This document shows positions 1 through 17,964 of a stretch of DNA of 19,497 nucleotides, piece after piece; within the stretch, counting starts at the first letter, position 1; each line of letters starts with the position of its first letter. The DNA lies in UHGV virus genome UHGV-0127427, one strand, 5' to 3'. The notes under the pieces were generated by a model. The model was not told the origin of the DNA. It searched no databases and was given only the letters and a program-made list of their open reading frames with translations. The translations under genes and the position numbers were made by a program. Source of the DNA: a virus.

Positions 1-1
1 T

Positions 2-1693
2 ACGATTTTTTCCGAATTCTGCGGTTCCCCCGACATCCATCATCTGACGTTGCCATGGACACCAGCCAGTGTCGCACAGCGTAACGGTCGCGGTGCCCGA
101 GTTGGCTCCAACCGTGCAAGCGTTCGCGTTCATTACTACTGCGGCAAGGGTTCTTTCGATGAATACCGACTGAAGACGCTGAAGCGTAAAGCAGGCTGGA
201 TCTCCGATATCCTCCGTTCAGATAAGTCAGAAATGGAGAACGCCGACGCCAACGATATGATCGAAATGCAGATGTATACCGCTAAGGATGATGGCGAACG
301 TCTGGCAATGATGCAGGTTCAAATGGATAAGGCGAAAGCCGCGCAACGCGCCCGCCAGAAAGAACAGGCCGCTATCGACCTTCAGAACTACATCAAGGCG
401 CAACATGCAGCTGGCGAGGATGTTGCGGCTCTTACCGCTGAATTAGAGCGAAGTAAAGCGGAACTTGAAAAGACCACCGCCGAGGTAGCTAAATTCAAAC
501 AGGCGGTAATGGCCAAAGCAGCTGATAATGCAGACTGGAAGGCCCGCTGGGGTAGCGTCCATCACACAGACCGTACGTTGTTAGCACATTATCGCGCGTC
601 GTTGAAAAGCGCCATTCAGCGCAAGGCTAATATCACTCAAGCCATCTCCCGCTATGAGAAATTATTGAACCGTACTCAGAAGGCCGCGACGGATATCAAA
701 CGCCTGCGCCCGCTGGTGGAGGATGCAATAAATAAAGGCATTCTGGATGTTGATCCTGATCTGGTTAACCATGCGAATGAGTTCCTTGTTATCGGCGATC
801 GCTCATGGCGTGTAGGCCAATACTACGATTGTGCCGGTGATATCGTTCGCATTAAGTCGCTGGACTTCGACAGCCAGCGCGCAGACGTGGAGATCATCTT
901 TACCTTCAAAGGCACCAAATCGGGTAACTGGGATGTGAAGACGCTGGATAAACAGGTGGATGTAACTCCCGATGAAGATGCTGTTATGCAGAAAATCAGT
1001 GGTGGCGTCTCCATCGCCGGGATTAACGACATCATTTCCTGTGACGATTTCTACCGTTTCCAGCAGCGCGGCATGATCAAAATCACTGACTCATACGGCG
1101 TTCAGACTACAGAGTCAGGCTATAGCATTGATTTTGTTGGTACCTATACGGACCCACTGAAGCATGCGGTTTACCCGGATCGCCGTGACGGCGCGCTGAA
1201 GTCGTCAATTGCAAAATGGGTGCTTGGTATGATGTCGGAAGGGAATAACCGCCAGGTCCGTTTGGCAGAAGTATTCCTGACTGAACTGTTTGGCTCCAAT
1301 TATGGCGAAGTAATCGCGTCATACGGAGATACGCTATCCCCTGAAGCAATTCAGGAGAAAATAGCGGATGCGATCGCCAGAATGCCGGAGAAAACAAGCC
1401 AGGGGGCTACTCGTAACGGGGATTCTGAACTTGAGGTCACCAATGCCATTTTCGGTACCCATGAGTTCCGGGCGTCAGATTATGAGATCACCACAGCACA
1501 GTTTGGCACCATTGGCATTTACAGCAATAAAGACGAGATCAAGCAGGCAATGGACGCTGCAAGCGCGCGTATTGCAGCAGAACGGAAAGCCAATCTGAAT
1601 CATGCAGTCGCCGCGCTGACTCAATCGTGGGTAACAGCAATCAGGGAGGCCGCCACCACAGGGAAATCACACCGGCAATTGCGGATGTCGTAA
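2..1693 (+). CDS. darB: DarB-like protein, C-terminal ~560 aa (5' end lies outside the window)
   Basis: Reading frame is open from base 2 to the stop at 1691-1693 (the track's start at 50 is a TTG inside the open frame). A helicase motif VI-like QRNGRGAR lies near the visible N-terminus. Followed in the same orientation by ulx- and lxc-like genes as in P1. Assignment is by synteny and motif, not homology search. Confidence 0.5.
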   Translation, partial: TIFSEFCGSPDIHHLTLPWTPASVAQRNGRGARVGSNRASVRVHYYCGKGSFDEYRLKTLKRKAGWISDILRSDKSEMENADANDMIEMQMYTAKDDGERLAMMQVQMDKAKAAQRARQKEQAAIDLQNYIKAQHAAGEDVAALTAELERSKAELEKTTAEVAKFKQAVMAKAADNADWKARWGSVHHTDRTLLAHYRASLKSAIQRKANITQAISRYEKLLNRTQKAATDIKRLRPLVEDAINKGILDVDPDLVNHANEFLVIGDRSWRVGQYYDCAGDIVRIKSLDFDSQRADVEIIFTFKGTKSGNWDVKTLDKQVDVTPDEDAVMQKISGGVSIAGINDIISCDDFYRFQQRGMIKITDSYGVQTTESGYSIDFVGTYTDPLKHAVYPDRRDGALKSSIAKWVLGMMSEGNNRQVRLAEVFLTELFGSNYGEVIASYGDTLSPEAIQEKIADAIARMPEKTSQGATRNGDSELEVTNAIFGTHEFRASDYEITTAQFGTIGIYSNKDEIKQAMDAASARIAAERKANLNHAVAALTQSWVTAIREAATTGKSHRQLRMS

Positions 1694-1710
1694 ACGACGG
1701 CTCTAAATTT

Positions 1711-2322
1711 ATGGATGCCTATCAAATGGATGCGGTGCAGTTGCCATCAGCCTATGGGCAACTCAGCTATCGCATGACCTACAACCTGGTATCAATGTTT
1801 TCCGACCTTGCCATCCTTGGGCTGGTGGACCTTAACGAGGTTACGCCGGAATTGCTTAGCATGCGCAAGAATCATGTTGAGATATTGCAGAGAATTAACA
1901 CGGTTCTTGCCGGGCGCACCGATGAAGAGAAACAGGCCGACGCTGATCGGATAAACCTGGCCCTAGGCAACATCACGGAGGAAGAAATTGCCGCCAGAAA
2001 CGAGAAACAAGAAGAGTTATCATCAATACAGGGTGATGCCACCAGCATAGCTCAGTCTCTTGGTCTGAATTATCGCGTATCCACCGCCGACCTGAAGATG
2101 ATGTACGCACCAAAATTCGCAGCTGGTGAGGTATTTGGGCTTCAGGAGGCGTCCGGCATGAAAGGCGTTCTTTTCCGTGCTAAAGACGCAATCAAGGAAA
2201 AATTCGGCGCTCGCTGGCTGCCAGCGAAGGCGAAGAACAGCGATTTCCCGGGCAACTGGTGGATTATCGAGACAAAACACAACGTGGCGGACGTTCTGGC
2301 CGTCATCCAACAATACGCATAA
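1711..2322 (+). CDS. hypothetical protein (203 aa from ATG 1711; the ORF extends up to GTG 1627, overlapping the darB-like stop in another frame)
   Basis: Long ORF with protein-like composition, same strand as flanking genes, ATG 18 nt after the upstream stop; no strong Shine-Dalgarno. Could alternatively be a frameshifted continuation of the upstream gene. Confidence 0.45.
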   Translation: MDAYQMDAVQLPSAYGQLSYRMTYNLVSMFSDLAILGLVDLNEVTPELLSMRKNHVEILQRINTVLAGRTDEEKQADADRINLALGNITEEEIAARNEKQEELSSIQGDATSIAQSLGLNYRVSTADLKMMYAPKFAAGEVFGLQEASGMKGVLFRAKDAIKEKFGARWLPAKAKNSDFPGNWWIIETKHNVADVLAVIQQYA

Positions 2323-2355
2323 CAGGAGCGCCCGGTTCGCCGGGCGTCGCATAAT

Positions 2356-2796
2356 ATGGCCACACTATCTGATACAATAAAACCGAATAAAACATATCTT
2401 GAGGCGGTACTCCGTACAGCGTTGTTAGGAAAGACAGAAGACGAATACGTTGATTTCTTCCTGTCAGGGCTACGCGGGCGATTACTGAAAAATCCCCGCC
2501 TGTACCGCAGCTATGGCCCATACTGGCCGGAAATTAAAAAATTATTACTGGAGCGCGGTTATGGTAATTTCGGTCGTCTCGTTGACCGTGACGTTCGCAA
2601 ATTTTACCGTTATGACCGCCCGGCGCTAACACTCATAGCCGCGACGCTCTACAGCCAGGAGCGTTTTGATAATGGTCAGATATACTCAGCCTGGCATTTA
2701 CTGCCAGTCCCTGAAGAAGTTGACGACCAGGACTATGAGTTTGAGTCTTACGATTTGGAAGTTGAAGCCTTGGCACAGGCTGGAGAGAAAACTTGA
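2356..2796 (+). CDS. ulx: Ulx-like protein (gene upstream of lxc), 146 aa
   Basis: ATG-initiated ORF whose stop TGA (2794-2796) overlaps the TTG start of the downstream 82-aa lxc-like gene; position matches P1 ulx. Positional assignment only. Confidence 0.5.
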   Translation: MATLSDTIKPNKTYLEAVLRTALLGKTEDEYVDFFLSGLRGRLLKNPRLYRSYGPYWPEIKKLLLERGYGNFGRLVDRDVRKFYRYDRPALTLIAATLYSQERFDNGQIYSAWHLLPVPEEVDDQDYEFESYDLEVEALAQAGEKT

Positions 2797-3041
2797 AAAA
2801 GCGATACTACACAGTAAAGCATGGGACGCTACGAGCATTACAAGAGTTTGCTGACAAGCATAACGTTGAGGTGCGCAGGGAAGGGGGAAGTAAAGCTCTG
2901 CGCATGTACCGTCCGGACGGGAAATGGCGGACGGTCGTCGATTTCAAAACAAACAGCGTTCCCCAGGGCGTCCGCGACCGGGCATTCGAAGAATGGGAGC
3001 AGATCATCATAGATAATGCTCTGCTACTAAATGCTGACTGA
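2793..3041 (+). CDS. lxc: Lxc/Bof-like C1 co-repressor, 82 aa, TTG start
   Basis: 82-aa ORF (the size I recall for P1 Bof/Lxc) beginning with TTG 6 nt downstream of GGAGA, overlapping the upstream stop (TTGA); no in-frame ATG until codon 38. Confidence 0.6.
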   Translation: MKKRYYTVKHGTLRALQEFADKHNVEVRREGGSKALRMYRPDGKWRTVVDFKTNSVPQGVRDRAFEEWEQIIIDNALLLNAD

Positions 3042-3300
3042 GTTTAATATTACAATATTATCTGGGAGATAAATGCATCTTATTTCCCAGATGATAACTG
3101 ATGTTTTACATATTCACATGGTGTACAATTATAATACTGCCTAAATAGGCACACAAAGTACGATATGCTACTAAAACCACAACTTTTTGATACTTGTTTG
3201 AGGGGGCGGGTTTGCTTTAGTAATTTAATAGCAAAAGCCATTCGTGTATCAAGTAATAACTTACTGAAGGAGGTGTTTTCTAATAAGAGTTTTTTCTTTA

Positions 3301-3801
3301 TTAAACTCTCACTATGTATAGATAATCAGTTAAGTCTCTTAGTTTCCAATGTTTAGATACATCTGAAAGAAATATGCTGCGTACTTTCCCTGAGAAAGTA
3401 GGCATACCAGACTTAAGAAAAGCTCTAAGGTTGTCAACATCACTAAAAATTGAAAGTAATGAAAAAGTTAAAGCATCCTTAAAATCAGGATGTATATGAT
3501 TCTGGTCACTTATATTATCGATCATCCTGATTAATAAATCAGGATAAGCAAAAGACTTTTTTAGCAAATGTGGGCATTTATCCAGAAGTTGCTTCCCTTG
3601 GTGATTGTGACAAGATAAATAGTTTCTTACAGCACTATCATTAAGTTCGAATTCGATATATTTATCTGAATAGGTTTGTAAGAATTCGCGTTCAGAATGT
3701 TTAAGCAACAGCACATCACCATAATTTAATATTAAGAAATCCTTAAGAAATTGAAAATTTATCGGTTTCTTTATAAGGATGAAGTAACAGACTCCTGACA
3801 T
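3301..3801 (-). CDS. hypothetical protein, orphan gene in the AT-rich island (start ATG 3801 preferred; ORF extends to ATG 3813)
   Basis: 166-170 aa ORF in strongly AT-rich DNA; GGTGG lies 5 nt upstream of ATG 3801; no motif recognised. Confidence 0.4.
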   Translation of the reverse strand: MSGVCYFILIKKPINFQFLKDFLILNYGDVLLLKHSEREFLQTYSDKYIEFELNDSAVRNYLSCHNHQGKQLLDKCPHLLKKSFAYPDLLIRMIDNISDQNHIHPDFKDALTFSLLSIFSDVDNLRAFLKSGMPTFSGKVRSIFLSDVSKHWKLRDLTDYLYIVRV

Positions 3802-4035
3802 AGCTACCACCATTCTAAAGAGGCTTTGAACAAGAATAGAGATACAGCAGCACTGAAATCAAGAAGTTGTGCAAAAAATAAAAATATTGATTTGTGTCAT
3901 AGTTGCTGCTTTTTATTATTTAATTTTTATCAATTTCACTACAGATAAATAAATTGACATAGTGTGTAACCCCTGTAAATATAAAGGGCACTTTATCTGC
4001 TAAAGCCAACCAATTTAAAAATAGAGGGTGGGAGC

Positions 4036-4726
4036 ATGGAAGTTATCTACATAGTAGAACCAATCATTTCCACAAGCACTAACAAGTTGATAGCAGTGGA
4101 AGTGTTGAGCAGATTTTATTCCAACGAGGGGGGCTATTCTTTCTACTCAGAAAGTATTAGGTATGTTTACAAGCAAGATGAAGATTAACTTGCTAAAATC
4201 TCAACTTAACACAATAATCAAATATAAGTATTTTTTTGAATGCCATAATATATTATGCTCTATCAATGTAGATTATGATACCTGTTTATATATATATGGC
4301 AATAAACAAATTCAAGAACTACTAATAAACAATAAATTTATAGCGATTGAGATATCAGAAAACTATCCTGATTTAAGCGATGAGGATTACATCATATCCT
4401 TTCTACTGACTTTGACAGATAATGTTTGGCTTGATGATTTTGGAAGTGGTAACGCCACCATGAAAGCATTAATTAAAAATAAATATCATGCAATAAAACT
4501 TGATAAGTCATTTTTTCAAGAGCATATGATTAAGCCTCATTTTGATGTCATTATTAGCAATTTAAAAAAGTTATGTCCGAATATCATCGCTGAAGGCGTC
4601 GAAAACATTGATTGTCATAAGTTATCAAAAGGGATAGGGCTATGGGGCACTCAGGGATATTTTTTCCCATCAATTCCGCTGACGGAGATTGAGTCCATAG
4701 ATAGTAAGTGGCTATCAGATTTATGA
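4036..4726 (+). pseudogene. EAL-domain gene (degenerate EAL-only type) split by a frameshift: frame 1 4036-4188 (50 aa, EVL motif), frame 2 4163-4726 (187 aa)
   Basis: Frame 1 starts at ATG 4036 behind GAGGGTGGGAGC and encodes the EAL-type N-terminus (EPIISTSTNKLIAVEVLSRF). Frame 2 carries the remaining EAL signatures in canonical order: DDFGSGNATMKAL (DDFGTG), IKLDKSFF (KIDRSF), IAEGVE, QGYFFPSIP (QGYLFSRP). The two frames overlap around a G6 run at 4128-4133. Confidence 0.55.
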
Positions 4727-4779
4727 GATGCAGAGAGTTAGGATATTGATATGAACATCTAAGCACCTCATTACTGTGC

Positions 4780-5232
4780 TTAAAAGATGTTATCCTTACC
4801 TGTTAATTTACCTTGAGGAACTTTAGTGAGCTCCATCCGATAAAATGCTTTTATCATATTTACAAATGGCTCATATGGTGAATATTCGTTGTCTTGTTTA
4901 GTAACGGTGTCTGTCATTGTCCTGATGTAGTCTGCGCTTACCACGTTGTTGTTTGCTTCAATTAGTACCGGCCTGCCGTTCATGAAGGGATCACGCAACC
5001 TTACACGCTGGCCAACTCGACCGGTAATAAAGCTGTTTTCCTCTTCCACCAGCACGATAAAACCCTTTTCCTCTTTTTCTCGCAATTCGCGCAGCAGCTG
5101 GAGTTCCATATCGCGGCGGCGTTCAGGGTAGCTGGTCCGCTCAGCCATTATCAGCTCATTGTTGATCCATGCAGCAGTCATTGACGCCGGTTTGCCGACG
5201 CTCATTGAAACAACGCATATTTTCTTATCCAT
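4780..5232 (-). CDS. mat: Mat-like protein (P1 mat position), 150 aa from ATG 5232
   Basis: ORF between ref and the island; ATG at 5232 preceded by GGGG; the track start at 5259 is a non-ATG upstream codon. Positional assignment. Confidence 0.45.
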   Translation of the reverse strand: MDKKICVVSMSVGKPASMTAAWINNELIMAERTSYPERRRDMELQLLRELREKEEKGFIVLVEEENSFITGRVGQRVRLRDPFMNGRPVLIEANNNVVSADYIRTMTDTVTKQDNEYSPYEPFVNMIKAFYRMELTKVPQGKLTGKDNIF

Positions 5233-5243
5233 AGCGCCCCTAC

Positions 5244-5269
5244 AAAAAAGAAAAGCCACCAGCGGCGGC
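5244..5269 (-). terminator. intrinsic terminator-like hairpin plus U-run downstream of ref, ending 11 nt upstream of the mat start
   Basis: Minus-strand sense GCCGCC-GCU-GGUGGC (6-bp stem including one G.U) followed by UUUUCUUUUUU. Confidence 0.45.
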
Positions 5270-5420
5270 TTAGCAATACAACTGAAGGTAGCGCCCGGTA
5301 CTCAGACTGTGCCGTCCATGGAATATTTGAAAGGGGATCCATCCGTACCGGGCATGTGATGATTCTGACTGAAGTCACTTGTCAGTTGTCAATCATTTAT
5401 CATTAAAAATAATATATTTA

Positions 5421-5981
5421 TTAGTGCATGATGTTTGCCATCTCATAGGCGTCAGCCAGTAACTCCATCTCTGACTTGTTCAGCAGGGTGAATTCTTTCT
5501 TGCCTCCAACCACACCATCGGCATGAACAGGGACCAGCCAGGGGTATTTTGCTCTTACTTCAGCCGGAGCTGCATGCTGGTGGTGCCATCTACAAAGAGG
5601 CAATTGCTTTTTATGACAACCCGGCGCGGTACGACCGGCGATATGGTGCAGAGACATCTCATTAGATATTACTCCATGCATATAGCAGGCAATGCAGGGG
5701 AGAGTGCCAAGAGCATTGGCGATGCGCCGTTCCTCCGCCGTTGGTGTTCTCCCCTTCAAGCCACGAGATTTTATTTTTACCGCGCTTTTCCGCGTTTTGC
5801 TGGCTGGTGGGCGCTCTTTCTGTTTAGCGATACGGCGGTCGAGAGTATCCCGCATTTTCTGATATTGAGATTCTCGCCAGACCGGATCAGCCAACTTCTC
5901 CCGTTGCCGAGCGATCGCTCGTTCTCTGGCTGCCTTCTGCCACTTGCGGCACTGTTCAATTTTTTGTTCGATTGTTTTCAT
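5421..5981 (-). CDS. ref: Ref, recombination enhancement function (HNH-family endonuclease), 186 aa
   Basis: 186-aa ORF starting MKTIEQKIEQCRKWQK with Cys/His-rich HNH core (CIACYMHG...HH...CHKKQLPLCRWHH); matches P1 Ref as I recall it; located between mat and cra/cre as in P1. Confidence 0.9.
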   Translation of the reverse strand: MKTIEQKIEQCRKWQKAARERAIARQREKLADPVWRESQYQKMRDTLDRRIAKQKERPPASKTRKSAVKIKSRGLKGRTPTAEERRIANALGTLPCIACYMHGVISNEMSLHHIAGRTAPGCHKKQLPLCRWHHQHAAPAEVRAKYPWLVPVHADGVVGGKKEFTLLNKSEMELLADAYEMANIMH

Positions 5982-5985
5982 ATGG

Positions 5986-6014
5986 CAAAAAAAAAAGGCG
6001 GCCTAATGGCCGCC
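5986..6014 (-). terminator. intrinsic terminator / attenuator-like hairpin (7-bp GC stem, 4-nt loop) plus U10, 5 nt upstream of the ref ATG
   Basis: Minus-strand sense GGCGGCC-AUUA-GGCCGCC followed by ten U, then GCCAU-AUG(ref). Confidence 0.5.
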
Positions 6015-6081
6015 AATGATGTCAAGGAGTGAAGTAATGGCAACGTCTTCGTAGTTGACAAAAACTGCGGCTCAATTATAG

Positions 6082-6098
6082 CGATATATTAGAGCAAT
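6082..6098 (-). promoter_or_regulatory. C1 operator-like site (Op2-type) overlapping a candidate ref promoter
   Basis: Minus-strand sense ATTGCTCTAATATAT (14/17 to ATTGCTCTAATAAATTT) directly followed by CGC and a perfect TATAAT, about 90 bp upstream of ref. Confidence 0.65.
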
Positions 6099-6204
6099 GA
6101 TAGATATTTTGTTTATCGCTAATCACATTTTTTCACTTCAGTACCTGTGTGCTATACTCCTTCTTGATTGATTGGATGCGGAATACAAACCCGCTCTTTT
6201 GTGC

Positions 6205-6232
6205 AGCCTGGCTCCTTGCCAGGCTTTTTTTT
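6205..6232 (+). terminator. plus-strand intrinsic terminator (AGCCUGGC-UCCUU-GCCAGGCU followed by U8)
   Basis: 8-bp GC-rich stem, 5-nt loop and a run of 8 T on the plus strand; no plus-strand CDS upstream, so it probably ends a short non-coding transcript. Confidence 0.5.
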
Positions 6233-6542
6233 ATTTCATCATGGAAGTTGTTAACGCTTTGGACCTTGCTGAACTGATTGAGAGGGCTTTGTCAACGTGC
6301 CCCAAAAATTCGCCAAACTCAGACATCACTTTAGCAAAACCGCGCCGTGCTTCTTCCTCGGTGGCATTCATCACGAAATGTTCAGCACCACGCATACTTT
6401 TGACAGGGAACGCAACGGATATTGAATCAATATCAGGCATTCTATCGCTCAGCTTTACAGTGACAATGACGGCTGGCGACTGAATATTAGTGCTTACAGA
6501 CAGCACTACATATTTTCCGTCGATGTTGAAATCCTTTCTCAC
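6231..6542 (-). CDS. Cra-like hypothetical protein (cre-associated position); start uncertain (GTG 6542 or ATG 6440)
   Basis: ORF immediately downstream of cre on the same strand with protein-like composition (EEEARRGFAKVMSEFGEFLGHVDKAL); no strong RBS at either start. Confidence 0.4.
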   Translation of the reverse strand: MRKDFNIDGKYVVLSVSTNIQSPAVIVTVKLSDRMPDIDSISVAFPVKSMRGAEHFVMNATEEEARRGFAKVMSEFGEFLGHVDKALSISSARSKALTTSMMK

Positions 6543-6558
6543 ATGTCACCATAAATAT

Positions 6559-6575
6559 CAAAGAATTAGAGCAAT
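6559..6575 (-). promoter_or_regulatory. C1 operator-like site in the cre-cra intergenic region
   Basis: Minus-strand sense ATTGCTCTAATTCTTTG (13/17 to consensus; first 11 positions perfect). Confidence 0.5.
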
Positions 6576-6592
6576 CATTTACGCGTTAATGG

Positions 6593-7624
6593 CTAATCGC
6601 CATCTTCCAGAAGGCGCACCATTGCCCCTGTTTCACTATCCAGGTTACGGATATAGTTCATGACAATATTTACGTTGGTCCAGCCACCAGCTTGCATGAT
6701 CTCCGGTATTGAAACTCCGGCACGGGCCATATCTCGCGCGGCTCCGACACGGGCACTGTGTCCAGACCAGGCCAGGTACCTCTGGCCAGAGTCATCCTTA
6801 GCCCCGTAAATCAATCGGTGAGTTGCTTCAAAAATCCCTTCCAGGGCGCGAGTTGATAGCTGGCTGGTGGGTGATGGCGAGGCAACACCATTTTTTCTGA
6901 CCCGGCAAAACAAGTAGTTATTCGGATCATCAGCCACACCAGAGACAGAAATCCATCGTTCGACCAGTTTAGTTACCCCCAGGCTAAGTGCCTTCTCTAC
7001 ACCCGCGGTACTAACCAGAGTTTTCGTTCTGCCAATATGGATTAGCATTCTCCCACCGTCTGTACGTGAGATATCTTTAACCCTGATCCTGGCAATTTCG
7101 GCTATACGTAACAGGGTGTTATAAGCGATCCCCAGAAATGCCAGATTACGTATATCCTGGCAGCGATCGCTATTTTCCATGAGTGAACGAACCTGGTCGA
7201 AATCAGTGCGTTCGAACGCCAATGCCTGTTTTGCACGTTCACCGGCATCAACGTTTTCTTTTCGAATCCGCCGCATGACCAGTGAAACAGCATTGCTGTC
7301 ACTTGGTCGTGGCAGCCCGGACCGACGATGAAGCATGTTTAGCTGGCCCAAATGTTGCTGGATAGTTTTTACTGCCAGACCGCGCGCCTGAAGATATAGA
7401 AGATAATCGCGAACATCTTCAGGTTCTGCGGGAAACCACTTCCGGTTATTCAACTTGCACCATGCCGCCCACGACCGGCAAACGGACAGAAGCATTTTCC
7501 AGGTATGCTCAGAAAACGCCTGGCGATCCCTGAACATGTCCATCAGGTTCTTGCGAACCTCATCACTCGTTGCATCGACCGGTAATGCAGGCAAATTTTG
7601 GTGTACGGTCAGTAAATTGGACAT
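6593..7624 (-). CDS. cre: Cre site-specific tyrosine recombinase, 343 aa
   Basis: 343-aa ORF starting MSNLLTVHQNLPALPVDATSDEVRKNLMDMFRDRQAFSEHTWKMLLSVCRSWAAWCKLNNRKWFPAEPEDVRDYLLYLQARGLAVKTIQQHLGQLNMLHRRSGLPRPSDSNAVSLVMRRIRKENVDAGERAKQALAFERTDFDQVRSLMENSDRCQDIRNLAFLGIAYNTLLRIAEIARIRVKDISRTDGGRMLIHIGRTKTLVSTAGVEKALSLGVTKLVERWISVSGVADDPNNYLFCRVRKNGVASPSPTSQLSTRALEGIFEATHRLIYGAKDDSGQRYLAWSGHSARVGAARDMARAGVSIPEIMQAGGWTNVNIVMNYIRNLDSETGAMVRLLEDGD, near-identical to P1 Cre as recalled; loxP lies 419 bp upstream. Confidence 0.97.
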   Translation of the reverse strand: MSNLLTVHQNLPALPVDATSDEVRKNLMDMFRDRQAFSEHTWKMLLSVCRSWAAWCKLNNRKWFPAEPEDVRDYLLYLQARGLAVKTIQQHLGQLNMLHRRSGLPRPSDSNAVSLVMRRIRKENVDAGERAKQALAFERTDFDQVRSLMENSDRCQDIRNLAFLGIAYNTLLRIAEIARIRVKDISRTDGGRMLIHIGRTKTLVSTAGVEKALSLGVTKLVERWISVSGVADDPNNYLFCRVRKNGVASPSPTSQLSTRALEGIFEATHRLIYGAKDDSGQRYLAWSGHSARVGAARDMARAGVSIPEIMQAGGWTNVNIVMNYIRNLDSETGAMVRLLEDGD

Positions 7625-7631
7625 TTAACAC

Positions 7632-7853
7632 TCAGACAATAGTTTTAAGTAAAGTGTACAGGATTGGCTCTGCCTTTACCTGTTTATGGTTCTCGTCATA
7701 GAAACGCCAGCGACCGCGCGTGCGTTCTATTTTCTCTTCACCGCGCGATAATGACAGTTGGCAACTATCACGATCAAACCCTTTTGCCCGCCAGTAACCA
7801 CGGTTTTTCTCAAGCTCAAGATGAGTGGACACTTTAGCAGCTGAATATCCCAT
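7632..7853 (-). CDS. hypothetical 73-aa protein immediately upstream of cre
   Basis: ATG 7853 preceded by GAGGTG at 4-nt spacing; stop 7 nt before the cre ATG; basic protein (MGYSAAKVSTHLELEKNRGYWRAKGFDRD...). Not a P1 gene I can name. Confidence 0.4.
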   Translation of the reverse strand: MGYSAAKVSTHLELEKNRGYWRAKGFDRDSCQLSLSRGEEKIERTRGRWRFYDENHKQVKAEPILYTLLKTIV

Positions 7854-7950
7854 TTTTCACCTCTGATTGATTGGTGGTGCTAAGTGCGCTACGCGAAATC
7901 TGGAGCACTAACACTGCCAACATTTCGCAGATTTTACGTAGCGCAACCTT

Positions 7951-8023
7951 GATCAAATGATCAAGTGATCACTATTTGACCTGATAAGGTATTGAACTGT
8001 ATGGATTTACAGGTAAATTGATC
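7951..8023. promoter_or_regulatory. GATC (Dam site) cluster in the cre upstream regulatory region
   Basis: Four GATC within 73 bp (7951-7954, 7959-7962, 7967-7970, 8020-8023) between cre and loxP; consistent with the methylation-sensitive cre promoters described for P1. Confidence 0.55.
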
Positions 8024-8042
8024 ATGTTCAATAACCCTTAAG

Positions 8043-8076
8043 ATAACTTCGTATAATGTATGCTATACGAAGTTAT
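8043..8076 (-). other. loxP: loxP recombination site (34 bp: 13-bp inverted repeats flanking an 8-bp spacer)
   Basis: Exact ATAACTTCGTATA-ATGTATGC-TATACGAAGTTAT; spacer is the reverse complement of GCATACAT, so the site is inverted relative to the plus strand. Confidence 0.97.
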
Positions 8077-8119
8077 CAGGTCCGAAGAGGAGTTTACGTC
8101 CAGCTGCGCACAAAAATCA

Positions 8120-8136
8120 AGAATTATTAGAGCAAT
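8120..8136 (-). promoter_or_regulatory. C1 operator (Op99-type) in immC
   Basis: Minus-strand sense ATTGCTCTAATAATTCT (15/17). Confidence 0.6.
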
Positions 8137-8196
8137 AAATTTTGAGAGAAAAATCCCACTCCACCAGCTAAAAACTGGATTGTTTTTCATAGTTGT

Positions 8197-8223
8197 TTGA
8201 CAATTGCTCTAATAAATTATAGT
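8197..8223 (+). promoter_or_regulatory. Candidate immC promoter with embedded C1 operator (TTGACA - operator - TATAGT)
   Basis: TTGACA 8197-8202, operator ATTGCTCTAATAAATTA 8203-8219 (16/17), TATAGT 8218-8223; upstream of coi-c1 on the same strand. Confidence 0.65.
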
Positions 8224-8457
8224 TTTGCCGCCGTTACGTAATACGACTTTGGATTCACTATTTAATGTGTCTTCAGCGTTGTAGAGCGGCTCAGAAGGAA
8301 ATGAGCAAACAGGGAAACCTTATACAATGGCATTACAGCTATGCATTGCTCATCTTACACACAGCGCAATGTTGTTAGATTACCCCAGCATGGATCATGG
8401 GTGAAACAGTAGGTCAGAGCTTCAGGCTCTGTGTTGTCAATACAGTGAGGCATAATT

Positions 8458-8667
8458 ATGGCTTTCATTCAACCAACCATCGACGACGTTAGACATTGCT
8501 CTAACGCTTTATCTGTAGACCCTGCCGAAACCGACGCTGCCAGCACCATTGCTGAACACTACTCAAAGATATCCAATCAGGACTACCGCATCACCCAAGA
8601 CGACCTGGATGACCTCACTGACACAATCGAATATCTCATGGCAACTAACCAGTTAGCCTCACAATAA
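8458..8667 (+). CDS. coi: Coi, C1 inactivator, 69 aa
   Basis: 69-aa acidic ORF directly upstream of c1 on the same strand (MAFIQPTIDDVRHCSNALSVD...); size and position match P1 Coi; GTGAGG 7 nt upstream of the ATG. Confidence 0.85.
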   Translation: MAFIQPTIDDVRHCSNALSVDPAETDAASTIAEHYSKISNQDYRITQDDLDDLTDTIEYLMATNQLASQ

Positions 8668-8777
8668 ATGCACTAATAAATCTATTATTTTTGTTTGATC
8701 CCTCTATAATATAGGTCAGTAATGACCGGTTTTCTCAACCGGGCGTTATTGACCATGTCAATTCTGGAGGAGGATCA

Positions 8778-9629
8778 ATGATAAATTATGTCTACGGCGA
8801 ACAACTGTACCAGGAGTTCGTCAGCTTCAGGGATCTCTTTCTAAAAAAAGCTGTTGCACGCGCCCAACACGTTGATGCCGCCAGCGACGGTCGTCCTGTT
8901 CGCCCGGTTGTCGTTCTGCCGTTCAAAGAAACGGACAGCATTCAGGCTGAAATTGATAAATGGACTTTAATGGCGCGGGAACTGGAACAGTACCCAGACC
9001 TCAATATCCCAAAGACTATTTTATATCCAGTGCCTAACATCCTTCGCGGTGTACGTAAGGTTACAACTTATCAGACAGAAGCTGTGAACAGCGTCAACAT
9101 GACCGCTGGCCGCATTATTCATCTGATTGATAAGGATATTCGCATCCAAAAAAGCGCGGGGTTCAATGAGCACAGTGCGAAATACATAGAGAACCTGGAA
9201 GCAACAAAAGAGCTAATGAAGCAGTACCCGGAGGATGAAAAATTCCGTATGCGCGTACACGGCTTTAGCGAAACAATGCTGCGCGTCCACTACATTTCCA
9301 GTAGCCCTAACTACAATGATGGTAAATCAGTTAGTTACCATGTGCCACTGTGTGGCGTGTTTATCTGCGATGAAACCCTCCGTGATGGAATCATCATCAA
9401 CGGTGAATTCGAGAAAGCAAAATTTAGCCTTTATGACTCCATAGAACCGATCATCTGCGACCGCTGGCCGCAGGCAAAAATATATCGCCTGGCAGATATT
9501 GAAAATGTAAAAAAACAAATTGCCATCACTCGCGAAGAGAAAAAGGTCAAATCAGCCGCATCAGTTACGCGCAGTCGTAAAACTAAGAAGGGGCAGCCAG
9601 TAAACGACAACCCCGAAAGCGCGCAATAA
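8778..9629 (+). CDS. c1: C1 repressor of lysis, 283 aa
   Basis: 283-aa ORF starting MINYVYGEQLYQEFVSFRDLF behind GGAGGAGG; matches P1 C1 in length and N-terminus as recalled; multiple cognate operators in the window. Confidence 0.95.
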   Translation: MINYVYGEQLYQEFVSFRDLFLKKAVARAQHVDAASDGRPVRPVVVLPFKETDSIQAEIDKWTLMARELEQYPDLNIPKTILYPVPNILRGVRKVTTYQTEAVNSVNMTAGRIIHLIDKDIRIQKSAGFNEHSAKYIENLEATKELMKQYPEDEKFRMRVHGFSETMLRVHYISSSPNYNDGKSVSYHVPLCGVFICDETLRDGIIINGEFEKAKFSLYDSIEPIICDRWPQAKIYRLADIENVKKQIAITREEKKVKSAASVTRSRKTKKGQPVNDNPESAQ

Positions 9630-9632
9630 ATT

Positions 9633-9654
9633 ATGCCCGGCATCAACCGGGCAT
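9633..9654. terminator. hairpin between convergent c1 and the antirepressor-like gene (possible bidirectional terminator)
   Basis: ATGCCCGG-CATCAA-CCGGGCAT, 8-bp stem, 4 nt after the c1 stop; flanks are only moderately T-rich. Confidence 0.45.
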
Positions 9655-9661
9655 TCTTCCA

Positions 9662-10429
9662 TTATTCAGCCGCCACCGGTTTTAACAAGCCAGCATCGAG
9701 CAGTTTACGCGTCAACCACTGTTGTCCTTTCCCCGTTAATTGGGGCGTCAGCCGTATCTGGTAGCCATCTTCATCATCCAGCACCACTTCTTTCACTGTG
9801 AAATATCCGGCGTTTATGTACTGCTGGAACGGCACATTTTTACGCCCGCCGGACGCTATCAGAATGCCGTTCTCCCGTAACCAGGCAAACAGCGCGTTTT
9901 GCTTCAGCCCAACAACCTTTGCAAAATTACCAATCAGGATCCCCTTAGCCACTGATACACGGTCGGCAAAATCGACCTTGGGGGCTGCGGCCACCAGTTG
10001 TTGATTTAGCTGGTGGGCCTTCTGTTCCAGTAGCTGCTTTTGTTCAGCCAGCTCGGCAGCCAGGCGCAAGGCTTCAGGTAGTGTTTGGGGGATTGCGACC
10101 GGTTGCTGTTCTTTTTGCCGGAAGTAGCTGTCTTCCAGTTTTTCAAAGAATGCCCATGCTTCATCTGTGTTTACGATCTTAGACATGCGTGCCGCTCCGC
10201 GTTCGGCCCAAAGAATTACCTGGCTTGTATATTTGCTAACCAGGTGACTAGTAGTCACCAGCCTTTTAAATTCCTTTAATTTTGAACCAGTTAAGAGATA
10301 GTAATGCTTACCTTCTTCAAAGCGATCGGAGTTGCGAGACAAATTTTTACGAATATTAGCTTCATCGGTTCCATAAGCGCAGATAAACATCGCGCTTATC
10401 GACATCCAGATGCGGGTATTCCTTTTCAA
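9662..10429 (-). CDS. phage antirepressor-like protein (ORF6N-type N-terminal region plus KilA-C/ANT-type C-terminal region); start uncertain (TTG 10429 or ATG 10405)
   Basis: N-terminal half AYGTDEANIRKNLSRNSDRFEEGKHYYLLTGSKLKEF...ILWAERGAARMSK and C-terminal half DRVSVAKGILIGNFAKVVGLKQNALFAWLRENGILIASGGRKNVPFQQYINAGYF are typical of phage antirepressors; sits where P1 has pacB/pacA/lpa. Confidence 0.65.
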   Translation of the reverse strand: MKRNTRIWMSISAMFICAYGTDEANIRKNLSRNSDRFEEGKHYYLLTGSKLKEFKRLVTTSHLVSKYTSQVILWAERGAARMSKIVNTDEAWAFFEKLEDSYFRQKEQQPVAIPQTLPEALRLAAELAEQKQLLEQKAHQLNQQLVAAAPKVDFADRVSVAKGILIGNFAKVVGLKQNALFAWLRENGILIASGGRKNVPFQQYINAGYFTVKEVVLDDEDGYQIRLTPQLTGKGQQWLTRKLLDAGLLKPVAAE

Positions 10430-10556
10430 GAATTGCTGCGAGTTCTTTCGCTGATAGAAGAGATTTAGTGCGGATCATGTAATCCGCAATCTCGTACGAT
10501 GTTATTCGTGAGTGATTTATTTCCATGAAGTGGCGTCCCTGCCAGTTAAGTAACAT
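10362..10556 (-). CDS. hypothetical 64-aa protein overlapping the 5' end of the antirepressor-like gene in another frame
   Basis: ATG 10556 preceded by AGGTGA at 4-nt spacing; ends within the first codons of the antirepressor ORF; could be a real leader gene or the product of a frameshift. Confidence 0.35.
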   Translation of the reverse strand: MLLNWQGRHFMEINHSRITSYEIADYMIRTKSLLSAKELAAILEKEYPHLDVDKRDVYLRLWNR

Positions 10557-10626
10557 CCTGTCACCTACTGATTAGCCCATGTCAACTAATCAACGTCGAA
10601 TATAATACCCTCGATTAAAGAAATAG

Positions 10627-10643
10627 CAATACATTAGAGCAAT
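10627..10643 (-). promoter_or_regulatory. C1 operator-like site upstream of the 64-aa/antirepressor unit
   Basis: Minus-strand sense ATTGCTCTAATGTATTG (14/17) beginning 1 nt after the pdcB-like stop; TTGCTA-16 bp-TATTAT promoter-like hexamers overlap it. Confidence 0.55.
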
Positions 10644-10644
10644 T

Positions 10645-11691
10645 TTATCTAACGCTCGACGAATGACTTGTGATAGCGCCGACTCCAAGCGCGTAATCAA
10701 AGAACAATCGTTGATGCATCGCCAGCCTACCGTGCGTCTTCTCCCAATTATCGCGGTCACGCTCAATATCACGCTGGCATGACTGGCACAGAGGAATAGC
10801 ATAAATGTCATGCGCGCATAATCGACTATAACGAACGATATAAGGCGTAATGTGAGCGCCAGCTCCCGCCGCTCCACACCCACAGCATGGACGGGAAGCA
10901 ACAAAGTCCATGTACTCAGGTAATTTTAGCGATTGCAGTTTTGGTATTTTGAAATGCGCCATACCTGGGTCGGAGTCAACATCCACAGGGCATACTTTTG
11001 CACGCATCGGCGCGGCGCGTTCTTCCATCATCTGAACATATGCTGTAGCGCGATCGTCATACGGGCGAATATCCGCCTCTTTCAGTGGTCCGCTATCCTG
11101 CGGAGTAGCCTTCATCTTATTTATTATTGATATGCGGCAGACTTCTTCCGGCATCAGGTGCATCATGTTGCGCATGAAAGCCCACCAGCACAGCTCCTGA
11201 ATACTTAAATCATGGCTATTTGAAAGGCCCATTTCCTGACGGGCGACATCCAGTATCCAGTTAACGCGATTATTGTGCAGCGTTTCTTTCAGCTCATTAA
11301 AACCACGCATCCGGTAATGGTTATCGTGATGCCAGCACAACAACACCGCGCTATTGTCTCGTTCAGCGTGGACAATATGGTTGTCACACCAACTACGATC
11401 TGCGGCCTGGCATTGACCCTCTTTCCTACGCAACCACGCCACCAGCGCGTCAATTCCACCAATACGGCGAAACAGTTCATCGCTGTTAAAAAACGGCTGC
11501 AACGCCTCATTTGTTGCCATGGTTTGCTCGGTAACAACGAGGCCGTCTTCCATGTGCTCGATTAACTCACGCGGCACCGGCTCCATAATAAATTTACGGC
11601 CAGCCTCCACCAGCTTTCTGACCTCCTGATCCACTTTGAACGTGGCGAGGCCAAGCTCTTTCTGTACAAAGGGAGTAATTACGGCTTTCAC
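10645..11691 (-). CDS. pdcB: PdcB-like protein (post-doc gene B position), 348 aa, GTG start, Cys-rich C-terminal region
   Basis: GTG 11691 preceded by AAGGTG at 4 nt; C-terminal CCGCG...C..C..C..C cluster suggests metal binding; assignment by position downstream of doc. Confidence 0.5.
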
Positions 11692-11718
11692 ATCACACCT
11701 TTAATCACTGATTGGGCT

Positions 11719-11898
11719 TTATCTGCTGCCCGACATTATCTGTTTAAGCACAACCATTTCCTGACGGCATAACACAGCAATAGCGGTCCTGGCACCAATT
11801 TGCTTACTAACCAGGTATTGCTTTATCTTGCGGCGACTCACGCCATCAAGAAGCATCTTTAACGCTTCACGGGACAATTTGTTGTATTTGCGTGCCAT
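11719..11898 (-). CDS. pdcA: PdcA-like small protein, 59 aa from ATG 11898
   Basis: ATG 11898 lies 4 nt after the doc stop; the track start at 11919 would overlap doc. Positional assignment. Confidence 0.45.
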   Translation of the reverse strand: MARKYNKLSREALKMLLDGVSRRKIKQYLVSKQIGARTAIAVLCRQEMVVLKQIMSGSR

Positions 11899-11902
11899 TA
11901 AT

Positions 11903-12283
11903 CTACTCCGCAGAACCATACAATCTACGTAACGTGGCGGCGACAGAAGATACAGATATCTCGCCAGTCGCAGCGCCTACAGTAAGGTCTGCCAGTTCAG
12001 GTGAATCAAATACCTGCACCCCGTTACGGCGTAGAAATAGCAGCGCACTGTTTAGCGCGGTACGCTTATTGGCATCATTGAATATATGCCCTCTCGCTGT
12101 AGCCACCAGGTAGGTGGCGGAGACTTCGAAAAGGTCGGTGATCTCTTCGTAGGCAACTCTGGCCTGAACTCTCCCGATAATGGCCTCTGCCCTACCCGGA
12201 TCTGACATTCCCGGCAGGCCGCCGTAGCGGTTTATATTCGCATCATGAAGCGCAATAAGTTCTTCCGGTGATATATGCCTCAT
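11903..12283 (-). CDS. doc: Doc toxin (Fic-fold kinase) of the phd-doc addiction module, 126 aa
   Basis: 126-aa [50 protein letters not shown]...; start overlaps the phd stop by 1 nt (TAATG), as in P1. Confidence 0.95.
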
Positions 12284-12504
12284 TATCGGTTAACCAGTTC
12301 CTTGTTGGTGGAGTCCAGGGTGTCAAACAGGGATGCAAATTCAGCATCCAGCGCCGCTTTTTTGTAGGCTTCGAAAGTAGCCTTGCTGACAATTACTGCT
12401 GGCTCACGGCCTCTGCGGGTGATTTCAACCTCTTCCCCGGCTTCAACATTGTTGAGCACTTCAGAAAGGTTGCCGCGCGCGGTACGGAAGTTAATGGATT
12501 GCAT
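12283..12504 (-). CDS. phd: Phd antitoxin, 73 aa
   Basis: [73 protein letters not shown] from ATG 12504 (two codons inside the track's start); matches P1 Phd. Confidence 0.95.
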
Positions 12505-12684
12505 AAACACCTCGTGTACTCGTTATGTGTACACAATTATAAACTTCACAGGCATAAAGCACCAGCACTTTGCAGCTTAAATCACCGGACAATCATCAAA
12601 TTCCCCACTTCGGGCATCATTAATGACATGAGTGATCACACCAAACACAGCATTACTCCCCGTGCATCCATCGTCATCCACTGG

Positions 12685-12966
12685 TCACGCCTCTTTCTTC
12701 CCGGTGCTTAAATCCTCCAGGTGCTGGCGCGGATACTTTCGGTATCTCTTTATGCGATATTCACCCTCCATAGCGCACACAAGCAGCGAACCATCAACTG
12801 GAGTAAGCGAAGAATCAACCACCAGCAAAGCACCCTGCAATATTCCCTCACGGTGATGGCTATCAGCTGCCCGCATGAAGTAGGTTGCTGATGGATGTCT
12901 AATTATCTGCTGATCAAGAGAAATTCGGCTTTCAACATAATCCGCCGCAGGAGAAGGGAAACCCAT
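12685..12966 (-). CDS. humD: HumD, UmuD'-like translesion synthesis accessory protein, 93 aa
   Basis: ORF upstream of phd-doc on the same strand with a UmuD'-like C-terminal region; GAGGT before the ATG; LexA box 19 bp upstream. Confidence 0.8.
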   Translation of the reverse strand: MGFPSPAADYVESRISLDQQIIRHPSATYFMRAADSHHREGILQGALLVVDSSLTPVDGSLLVCAMEGEYRIKRYRKYPRQHLEDLSTGKKEA

Positions 12967-12984
12967 AGCGTTTTACCTCAAAAA

Positions 12985-13004
12985 TACTGTTTATCTATAC
13001 AGCA
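12985..13004. promoter_or_regulatory. LexA box (SOS operator) upstream of humD
   Basis: TACTGTTTATCTATACAGCA, i.e. CTGT-N8-ACAG with AT-rich core. Confidence 0.7.
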
Positions 13005-13140
13005 TACATTAAAGAAGCACCTTTGGTGCAAACGCGTTATGTACATCAACCACCGCTGATGATTTTTGTGCGCTTTGCTACTATTCATCACCGCGGGATC
13101 AGCGTAACCTCGTTGCCAATCAGTTAATAAGGAATTAGCT

Positions 13141-13725
13141 ATGCCTAATCGCATTCCTCTCGATCCTGTATTGCCCAAAAATTTTGACTGCACTCCTAAC
13201 GAGAAACGCTCTAAAGCTCAGCTGGACGCCTAGTGGGACCATCCATATGGGGTTACACAACCTGACGGGAAAATTGTAGTTTATTGTCTGAATGGTGGGG
13301 CGTGGGACCGTCCATCCGTGCTTTGTTTGGCAGATAACTATGATGAAGCCTGTGAACTTGCCGAAAGACAGCAGGCAAGCTGGGTAAAAACACGGTCTGA
13401 ACCGACATTCATGTTTTCAAAAGAACCGCCATTTATACTGGCGAGGATGCCGCAGCGACCGGATCATCAACAAGAAATTGTTGCTGAATTTTCCTCAAGG
13501 GATGAGATGAATCTCTTCTCATTAAAGCAGGAAGAAAGGGATCGCGTCGAAGTGTCTCCAACTCTCGACCACAACCGGATGAACCTGGCCCAGCTCGCCT
13601 GGTACAGCAAAGAATTAGAGATGTCTATTGCCCGGCTTGAAAACGAAAAAGCCGCTATCCAAGTCCAGCACGAAGTAGTTCTGAACCGGATTAGAGAAAT
13701 GCAAAACGATAACAGGGGATTTTGA
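13141..13725 (+). pseudogene. hypothetical gene interrupted by an in-frame amber codon (30 codons, TAG at 13231-13233, then 164 more codons in the same frame)
   Basis: ATG 13141 has a good RBS (AAGGA, 8-nt spacing). The frame has a single TAG and continues open to 13725; the only in-frame restart (GTG 13318) lacks an RBS. Confidence 0.45.
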
Positions 13726-14082
13726 ATGGCTAAAATCGAGTACCATCGCGATCGCGGTAATTACCTGGAAATATACGATCATGAATCTCTTAACGATATC
13801 AACGATGCGTTATATGAATACTGTGAAAAAACGAGCATCACAGATGCACCTGATGCATTTGTCGAGCTGCCGGTATATCTCCGCGACATCTATGCAATAC
13901 GAACACCGCCCGTATCGGTGATTCACATTGGCTATGTCCGCCTGTCCATCGAAGAAGATGAAGATCGTTATATCGTGCGCCACTATACATTGGACAGAAA
14001 AGAACTTCCTAATGAATGGAACATGAGTAATTTCTACAACGGTGAATATGGCTTAAAATCCGCTAATAATTTACGGTCATAA
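13726..14082 (+). CDS. hypothetical protein, 118 aa
   Basis: ATG overlaps the upstream stop (TGAATG) with AGGGGA 9 nt upstream; acidic protein, no recognised motif. Confidence 0.5.
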   Translation: MAKIEYHRDRGNYLEIYDHESLNDINDALYEYCEKTSITDAPDAFVELPVYLRDIYAIRTPPVSVIHIGYVRLSIEEDEDRYIVRHYTLDRKELPNEWNMSNFYNGEYGLKSANNLRS

Positions 14083-14618
14083 TCTATACAGGCATGTATA
14101 ACAACAACGAGCCTATTAGCTGTCAACAACGTTATTTCCTCAAATAAGAAAAAGCAGAAAACAAATTGTTTAAGGTCACAAATTGTGGCCTTGATGGAGG
14201 AGGGAGGCTTATTGGCTATGGCTAAAAATCAAATTAGACACTTCATGTTGCTGTAGCTCATCAAGATCCGAGGCCACAAAACCTTTTCCGAAAAACTTCA
14301 CAAGTAACTCACTAGCCGCATCATTGTCACCTATTACACGAAAGTCATACGGCAACGTCGCAAGTTGACGATGTAATCCTGCTGAGAAAGTCGAATCTAA
14401 CAGCGCCCAGAATTCCCACCGCAGGATAATACTCGCCTCTTAATACTGTATATATGTTGTTACGATATGTTTTTCTGTCTCTAAAAAAAGATGTTTGAAG
14501 GGGATAAAAATATACAATTCCAACAAACGTTATTTTTAACAATTTTTTTCTTTGCGTTGACTTTCCCGGACACCTTGTCTGACCGAAGGTGCGCGAAAGC
14601 CACTTTTTCCTTCCTGAG

Positions 14619-14639
14619 TTATCCACAAAGTTATGCACT
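14619..14639 (+). promoter_or_regulatory. two tandem DnaA-box-like 9-mers
   Basis: TTATCCACA (14619-14627, perfect consensus) and TTATGCACT (14631-14639, 8/9) in direct orientation, 3 bp apart, inside an AT-rich non-coding stretch. Confidence 0.4.
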
Positions 14640-14927
14640 TGCAAGAGGGCCATTTTCTACATATTGTGGTGGCTAACAGATGAAATGAATGTAGATTAAT
14701 TGAAGATAAGGAGAAAATTTGAGATGCAATCATGACGTTAATAGATAGGGTCTGCATTACAGACCCCACCCGCATCAAGGAATTAGCCGTTCCCTGATGT
14801 TTTTCCGAAAACATGTGCCGTAAGCTCACGTTAACGACTTTCATTCACCGAATCCAACTATATAGGGGTTGGGTTTCTACGTCAACGTGAGCAAGTGCAC
14901 CTTTACATTTGACAAGGAACCACCTGA

Positions 14928-15065
14928 ATGAACGCTTTTTTTCAGTTCCTGAGTGCATTTTTAGATGCGCCTATTATTAGCCAGATTCTGGCTATTATCC
15001 TCATCATCGTTTTGATTTTGCTTTTAAGGTCAGTAAAAAATGGAATTATGCACTGGCTTACTTAA
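14928..15065 (+). CDS. small hydrophobic peptide, 45 aa (single predicted transmembrane helix)
   Basis: MNAFFQFLSAFLDAPIISQILAIILIIVLILLLRSVKNGIMHWLT; AAGGAA 8 nt upstream of the ATG; a perfect 9-bp inverted repeat overlaps the stop codon. Confidence 0.3.
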   Translation: MNAFFQFLSAFLDAPIISQILAIILIIVLILLLRSVKNGIMHWLT

Positions 15066-15140
15066 TGTTTCAGTGAAACATTAAAATCTCCTTGATGTGG
15101 AAACAATCATTTTCTGTATGTGCTGGTGGGCACCTGTAGT

Positions 15141-16381: not shown

Positions 16382-16465
16382 GCCGCGTTTCCTTCTTTCT
16401 TATTAACAATTACACCGTCATATATTTCATTAAGGTGGCGAACAACAAGAAACTGATTTCCGACT

Positions 16466-16603: not shown

Positions 16604-16612
16604 ACTCACGGT

Positions 16613-17191: not shown

Positions 17192-17200
17192 GCATCCCCC

Positions 17201-17287: not shown

Positions 17288-17315
17288 ATTTTCAGCTCCT
17301 GTGATTGATTGGATA

Positions 17316-17346: not shown

Positions 17347-17369
17347 CACTTTCTCTGTTTTAAAAATCA

Positions 17370-17892: not shown

Positions 17893-17911
17893 ATGCCCTC
17901 CTCATTGGACG

Positions 17912-17942: not shown

Positions 17943-17964
17943 ATTAAAAGTGACACTGTAACTA

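Follow-up and report, generated by a model that had tools for sequence, protein, structure and literature searches.

Small proteins built around an EAL domain have been described in several enterobacterial systems, and they differ in what they do with cyclic di-GMP (c-di-GMP). PdeH (YhjH) is the EAL-only c-di-GMP phosphodiesterase of the Escherichia coli flagellar regulon, SfaY/PdeY is an EAL-only protein whose gene closes the S-fimbrial operons of extraintestinal E. coli and which is reported to be functional on overexpression (PMC5635171), and STM1697 and YdiV (STM1344/RflP/CdgR) are EAL-like anti-FlhD4C2 factors that neither bind nor cleave c-di-GMP (PMC5622320). YdeO, GadX and GadW, as well as Rns, CsvR and ToxT, are AraC-family activators of horizontally acquired genes rich in adenine and thymine (AT-rich). 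Here we describe a locus that joins relatives of both kinds. In the stretch of UHGV virus genome UHGV-0127427 that we analysed (19,497 nucleotides, hereafter the window), the island between lxc and mat of a P1-like element holds a divergent pair consisting of an AraC-like regulator gene and an EAL-only gene. The best overall explanation, which we regard as probable though far from assured, is that this pair is an acquired regulator-EAL cassette whose intact form encodes a phosphodiesterase and whose copy in the window has decayed.

The EAL protein resembles PdeH in standing alone, in its similar size, in an identical catalytic pattern and in a non-canonical loop 6, but the two are only 26% identical, and the island gene is plasmid- or phage-borne, AT-rich, accompanied by its own AraC-type regulator and outside the flagellar regulon. 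STM1697 and YdiV are nearer in sequence and fold, and share with it a length of about 230 amino acids, a G-x-G-N-x-T loop and, in part, the hydrophobic positions that contact FlhD; unlike STM1697, which has lost three catalytic residues, and YdiV, which has lost six, the island protein keeps all of them, at 26–29% identity to these factors. With SfaY/PdeY it shares membership of one extended family, the invariant catalytic set and an accessory, horizontally acquired character, but at 23–24% identity, and SfaY is tied to a fimbrial operon, being neither AraC-partnered nor phage-plasmid-borne; SfaY is linked to the MarR-type SfaX. The regulator, for its part, is like the YdeO/GadX/GadW and Rns/CsvR/ToxT activators in its size (about 240 amino acids), its AT-rich locus and its position beside a presumed target, and unlike them it scores under every equivalog cut-off and has its DNA-binding domain frameshifted away in the window and in most copies.

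The EAL protein and its active site

An EAL-type domain of the short, EAL-only kind had been predicted from signature motifs in the plus-strand gene of the island, and both the domain and the motifs were present. The gene is frameshifted in the window; removal of one G yields a 229-amino-acid protein that matches Pfam EAL (PF00563) with an E-value (E) of 2.1e-17 and 63.7 bits, against a gathering threshold of 31.3, with residues 8–210 covering profile positions 18–233 of 236. Its AlphaFold2 model, with a predicted local distance difference test score (pLDDT) of 92.3, is a confident TIM-barrel-type EAL fold. By phmmer the nearest solved relatives were STM1697 (E 1.6e-28) and YdiV (E 4e-19), with active YahA/PdeL far behind (1e-8). 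Foldseek gave the same picture, with template modelling (TM) scores of 0.88 for YdiV and 0.83–0.90 for STM1697 and root-mean-square deviations (rmsd) of 1.9–2.4 Å, compared to a TM score of about 0.77 and an rmsd above 3 Å for active EAL proteins. The resemblance to YdiV/RflP suggested by the original prediction is therefore real in both sequence and structure.

The further step taken there, that the protein is a protein-binding regulator rather than a phosphodiesterase, does not follow, because all of the residues lost by YdiV and STM1697 are kept. The metal, substrate and base positions of a competent EAL phosphodiesterase are all occupied, and none of the ten catalytic residues (E22, N77, E105, E108, D133, D134, K154, E186, E189 and Q206) varies among 15 family members, a set that reaches as far as SfaY/PdeY at 23% identity. 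A joint alignment demonstrated that the catalytic pattern is identical to that of E. coli PdeH, while STM1697 carries E105Q, D133G and E186G and YdiV carries six substitutions. Loop 6, DDFGSGNATMKAL (DDFGSGNAT), departs from the canonical DFG(T/A)GYSS, but this is not disqualifying, because the corresponding loop of the proven enzyme PdeH, DDFGTGMANFSAL (DDFGTGMAN), deviates too. The best NCBIfam family match was likewise the PdeH model (NF008617; E 3.8e-26). The protein thus looks YdiV-shaped but catalytically complete. Since every catalytic residue is both kept and invariant, we predict that the intact 229-amino-acid protein is an active c-di-GMP phosphodiesterase and not merely a protein binder, a prediction from residue conservation that we hold with a little more belief than doubt.

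The AraC-like regulator

The minus-strand open reading frame (ORF) of the island had been described as an orphan with no recognisable motif. It proved instead to be the front part of a frameshifted regulator. Alignment with two island-bearing phage records, those of laboratory P1vir (OP279344) and Ro157c2YLVW, located the lesion, where the plus strand reads TCACT-ATG in the window and TCACTCATG in intact copies. Restoring the missing C fuses the 170-amino-acid ORF with the frame that extends as far as 3080 into one coding sequence, likely starting at the ATG at 3801, for a protein of 240 amino acids. This repaired protein has the C-terminal double helix-turn-helix (HTH) that defines the AraC/XylS family, with both matches above the Pfam thresholds: HTH_18 at 43.2 bits against 33.6 (E 4.8e-11), and HTH_AraC at 30.8 bits against 26.6. 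As written in the window, the HTH motifs are out of frame with the N-terminal 166–170 amino acids.

Among NCBIfam families the repaired regulator was matched best by the YdeO model (NF007407; E 1.6e-41), in an alignment that spans the full length (1–231 to 1–230 of 253) and scores 142.5 bits, short of the equivalog cut-off of 348, followed by GadX (E 1.9e-26), HilD and HilC, all of them also under their equivalog cut-offs. Its AlphaFold2 model (pLDDT 76.8) was placed by Foldseek nearest to CsvR, Rns and ToxT over the full length, with E-values from 1e-9 to 1e-7, and its C-terminus is 39–40% identical to the DNA-binding domain of an E. coli K-12 regulator in structure 3mkl, which we take to be that of GadX. 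The ORF at 3301–3813 is the N-terminal two-thirds of a frameshifted AraC/XylS regulator with YdeO/GadX-like sequence and an Rns/ToxT/CsvR-like fold.

The frameshift is certainly real and is the dominant natural allele. Of 107 complete E. coli genomes, 85 contain an exact match to a 60-nucleotide probe across it, RefSeq labels the gene "frameshifted" in plasmids pTB211 and pMRE162, and at least 1000 contigs carry the truncated product as a 166-amino-acid call and 607 contigs as a 170-amino-acid call, while intact 240-amino-acid forms are each found on a few to 16 contigs. We considered a sequencing error as the cause and rejected it, since the site lies in no homopolymer, the lesion is annotated by RefSeq in independent plasmids, and so many contigs carry the truncated product. 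The regulator of laboratory P1vir carries a different lesion, a 21-nucleotide in-frame deletion within the first HTH. Beyond the island, a regulator relative of 57% identity adjoins a K88-type fimbrial gene on IncFII plasmids. Another AraC homologue, 48% identical, has a 206-amino-acid protein beside it that we checked as a possible degenerate EAL partner and found to be unrelated.

An acquired cassette at a variable P1 locus

The guanine plus cytosine (GC) content of the island is 0.322, against 0.510 for positions 1–3041 and 0.464 for positions 4780–19497, and in 300-nucleotide windows it falls from about 0.50 to 0.27–0.34 within roughly 3000–4800. This sliding-window analysis agreed with the original prediction that the island is far more AT-rich than its flanks, and comparison with reference P1 (NC_005856) likewise upheld its placement at the P1 res-mod position, between the end of lxc (2793–3041, plus strand) and the stop codon of mat (at 4780, minus strand). 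In reference P1 this interval holds res, mod and IS5. The res-mod region has been termed "variable region 1" of P1-like phage-plasmids, and its low GC content has been noted (PMC9603915). Homology to P1 ends a few bases from the lxc and mat stop codons, and in alignments of the island variants the junctions are exactly these stop codons. Phage RCS47 has just 39 nucleotides and no cargo between the two stop codons, and in SJ46 a RelA/SpoT-family gene occupies the gap. Within the island the two divergent genes reported earlier are indeed present, 222 nucleotides apart. A repeat search around the island found no flanking direct or inverted repeats, and hence nothing that points to a transposon or an att site.

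We surveyed complete E. coli genomes for the island and found it in 146 of 5426 (2.7%), at 149 plasmid and 6 chromosomal places. P1-like elements occur in about 13% of these genomes, and among the 699 that carry the P1-like ulx-lxc backbone, 146, or about one in five, have the island, a proportion that led us to reject the idea of a conserved P1 core segment. The island also turned up in PLSDB, in 149 plasmids, among them a single one from each of Shigella, Salmonella and Klebsiella, as well as in three phage records and six IMG/VR contigs; fully intact regulator and EAL pairs occur in IMG/VR P1-like contigs. With its deviant GC content, its patchy presence, and the differing or missing cargo of relatives at the same site, the island is a horizontally acquired, self-contained cassette of two genes, about 1.65 kb long, in the variable cargo site between lxc and mat, as the original prediction had proposed for this locus.

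The regulator and EAL gene move together. An IncFII plasmid carries the same divergent pair, with 73% DNA identity over window positions 3098–4729, that is, over the two genes and their spacer only; there its neighbours are ParE/RelB and repA, and the copy is again AT-rich (GC 0.31 versus 0.48). Ratios of nonsynonymous to synonymous substitution rates (dN/dS) were 0.12–0.15 for the EAL gene and 0.08–0.11 for the AraC-like gene, at dS of 0.46–1.8, indicating that both genes were under long-term purifying selection and functional until recently; the frameshifts are therefore recent. Database labels for the products are generic ("EAL domain-containing protein", "helix-turn-helix domain-containing protein"), one record using ydiV. 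The cassette is a real, common and uncharacterised cargo module of known kinds, and not a new kind of module.

Several other records bear on where the cassette and its relatives are found. In the record of laboratory P1vir, deposited as "del res del mod", the island replaces res-mod and the EAL gene is intact, so the cassette is present in a phage that forms plaques. Salmonella "phage" SJ1 (24.5 kb) has an EAL gene 99.4% identical to that of the island, annotated ydiV, between mat and IS1 and adjoining a Tn21 mer operon and RepFIB; it is a rearranged fragment in which IS1 replaces the regulator side. More distant EAL relatives (35–50% identical) lie, without the regulator, at the ends of Pap-like and other chaperone-usher fimbrial operons in E. 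coli and Pantoea, which suggests a fimbria-linked branch of the same EAL family, as with SfaY/PdeY. In three such loci (L007, 5001–5711; L008 and L009, 5001–5798) the EAL relative stands at the end of a chaperone-usher fimbrial operon, and in E. coli a SPATE autotransporter and hlyCA come after the Pap-like operon; Pantoea ananatis has a similar EAL-fimbrial arrangement. Some 22 prophage-like IMG/VR contigs of about 53–55 kb (L027–L048) have an EAL segment of about 30% identity at the contig end, which may be a host gene next to the integration site and not phage cargo.

Control region and proposed working of the intact cassette

The intergenic region between the two genes contains a perfect TTGACA at 3954–3959 and a Shine-Dalgarno-like GGGTGGGAG ahead of the EAL ATG, and several blocks near the start of the AraC-like gene are kept even in the 73%-identical IncFII copy. 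Promoter assignments in this region are putative. The only notable site in a promoter and terminator scan of 2950–4900 was a hairpin between the converging ends of lxc and the AraC-like gene, which overlaps the last codons of the latter, is conserved in sequence in all three aligned copies, and is probably a bidirectional terminator. An Rfam search at a permissive threshold gave no match, and thus no c-di-GMP riboswitch or other known RNA, in the island. A search of the window for P1 C1 operators found none inside the island; six matches to ATTGCTCTAATAAATTT with up to 3 mismatches lie in the backbone, at 6082, 8120, 8203, 8667, 10627 and 17370, where 0.1 would be expected by chance.

We propose that in an intact cassette the regulator would bind the shared 222-bp AT-rich intergenic region and activate the EAL gene, probably through relief of H-NS silencing, a scheme in keeping with the known action of YdeO, GadX and Rns-type activators on AT-rich loci. 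The EAL protein would then hydrolyse c-di-GMP, as PdeH does, and the lower c-di-GMP in the lysogen would shift the host toward motility and away from curli and cellulose biofilm. The lack of a C1 operator in the cassette would fit expression in the plasmid or prophage state.

Alternative explanations and the state of this copy

Several observations weigh against an active, regulated phosphodiesterase cassette. The nearest solved relatives of the EAL protein, STM1697 and YdiV, are non-catalytic FlhD binders, its loop 6 has the G-N-x-T form common to both, and its score against the PdeH model is 91.9 bits, below the equivalog cut-off of 190. The case that the AraC-like protein regulates the EAL gene is drawn from their arrangement and co-inheritance; a promoter scan of 2950–4900 found 11 sites against 9.6 ± 3.0 in shuffles, which is no excess, and most natural copies pair an intact EAL gene with a broken regulator, so that either the EAL gene is independent of the regulator or those copies are silent. 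Because the copies are 99.7–99.9% identical, an intact EAL gene is little guide to current selection. We found no functional study in the literature on this cassette, on P1-like elements together with EAL, or on plasmid- or prophage-encoded EAL proteins. The sequence and fold matches, together with the compact size, would also suit a protein that acts mainly by binding FlhD, blocking FlhD4C2 and switching off the motility of the lysogen, with catalysis irrelevant, and motility repressors are common beside fimbrial operons of the kind that distant EAL relatives adjoin. We mapped FlhD contacts by combining a phmmer alignment with the published interface residues, which are F160, L172, L173, K167, K175 and H176 in STM1697 and F155, F168, F181 and A184 in YdiV (PMC5622320). 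Conservative counterparts are F159, V171, I172 and K166, of which F159 and I172 correspond to the central hydrophobic contacts F160 and L173 of STM1697 and K166 to its K167. The picture is mixed, however: the polar STM1697 contacts K175 and H176 are replaced by S174 and N175, YdiV F181 lies in a segment absent from the EAL protein and F155 becomes Ile, and F159 is not specific to FlhD binders because it is conserved across the protein's own family and in PdeH. A complete, family-invariant set of catalytic residues would be hard to explain in a pure binder, and we consider action mainly through FlhD unlikely; the probability that is left falls to both roles jointly or to something else. It is conceivable, though in our view quite unlikely, that the intact protein is a catalytically complete member of the compact YdiV/STM1697 structural subtype, able to degrade c-di-GMP as well as to dock on FlhD, a living intermediate between phosphodiesterases and degenerate anti-FlhDC factors, by which P1-like elements would reset host motility and biofilm under their own AraC-type sensor, and that the truncated, N-terminal-only regulator might be dominant-negative on host regulators of the YdeO/GadX type. 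Still less probable, to the point of being a long shot, is a defence or counter-defence module, for example one that degrades cyclic-dinucleotide immune signals. Relatives do hold defence-type cargo at this site (type III restriction-modification in P1, RelA/SpoT in SJ46), and some stand-alone EAL proteins have been deposited as "cyclic di nucleotide phosphodiesterase" (6ifq), but neither island protein matched the PADLOC models at E up to 0.01, their PHROG matches were only to families of unknown function, and the relatives of the cassette adjoin fimbrial operons and plasmid maintenance genes and not defence islands.

The phosphodiesterase cassette that we favour is, in the window, a doubly damaged one: the common one-nucleotide deletion has cost the regulator its DNA-binding domain, and the EAL gene carries a rare additional G. 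The exact repaired 229-amino-acid EAL sequence occurs on 482 contigs and a one-residue variant on 656, these being the two commonest variants, while the G6 allele occurs in one of 114 complete genomes, that of NCTC11129, and its 187-amino-acid product on only 4 contigs. Accessions of the intact 229-amino-acid protein are WP_000452096.1 and WP_069067574.1. The longest remaining product starts at Met43; lacking residues 1–42, and with them the first strands and the glutamate of the EAL motif, it should be inactive if the lesion is real. A different break, a frameshift close to the end of the EAL gene, is present in Ro157c2. It is possible, if somewhat doubtful, that the G6 run is a homopolymer sequencing or assembly error, in which case the window would represent the common state, a broken regulator beside an intact EAL gene. 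Besides the rarity of G6, this is suggested by comparison with the 99.9%-identical pMRE162, from which the window differs by two indels in about 17 kb, each of which changes a homopolymer by one base (A4 to A3 at 1664, G5 to G6 at 4128). On the other hand, the 4 contigs with the identical 187-amino-acid product come from several sources (NCBI, IMG, Logan and ENA), G-runs are also true slippage hotspots, and the AraC-like frameshift lies outside homopolymers and is certainly real. With both genes frameshifted, the copy in the window most likely does nothing, and no phenotype would be expected of it. The lysogenic-conversion function raised by the original prediction is thus plausible for intact alleles and not for this copy.

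Other features of the window

The coordinates of the island and its parts are collected in Table 1. The window is 99.9% identical over 917–19497, in three blocks, to pMRE162 (NZ_CP119405.1, 76.9 kb, from E. coli MRE162), a shortened P1-like element with several pseudogenes. Window positions 16438–17820 have no counterpart in pMRE162, which in turn has about 250 additional nucleotides at the junction corresponding to window position 10375. The A-run at 1660–1667 has A3 where pTB211 and pMRE162 have A4; the short run frameshifts the frame of a darB-related helicase/methylase, and the ORF restarts at 1627. The mat gene (4780–5232, minus strand) lacks 192 nucleotides (64 codons, in frame) at 4952/4953 compared to OP279344, Ro157c2 and pTB211, so that its product has 150 amino acids instead of 214. 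The same deletion is present in pMRE162, indicating a lineage trait and not an artefact.

Table 1. Features of the island in window coordinates, with the basis for each assignment
Feature	Position	Strand	Basis or remark
AT-rich cargo island	3042..4779	.	lxc stop to mat stop; GC content, P1 comparison, genome survey
Hairpin with 17-bp stem between convergent lxc and AraC-like genes (probable terminator)	3056..3096	.	Terminator scan
AraC-like pseudogene, C-terminal part, two HTH motifs in another frame	3080..3313	-	Pfam on repaired protein
AraC-like frameshift site, one C missing	3313..3314	-	Alignment with intact-frame copies
AraC-like pseudogene, N-terminal part (regulatory/dimerisation domain)	3301..3813	-	YdeO model, Foldseek
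Divergent intergenic region (putative control region)	3814..4035	.	Sequence and alignment
EAL-only gene, 229 amino acids if intact; here ORFs 4036-4188 and 4163-4726	4036..4726	+	Pfam EAL, AlphaFold2 model
G6 run, G5 in intact copies	4128..4133	+	Frameshift after codon 31 of EAL gene

Significance

P1-like phage-plasmids have been studied mainly as carriers of resistance genes, and the regulator-EAL cassette is among the commonest cargoes of their res-mod hot spot. The EAL protein offers a useful reference for tracing the loss of catalysis in YdiV and STM1697. Should the intact form prove active, a c-di-GMP switch would be passed among E. coli, Shigella and Salmonella by a transducing phage-plasmid, and motility, biofilm formation and possibly flagellin exposure could be affected.

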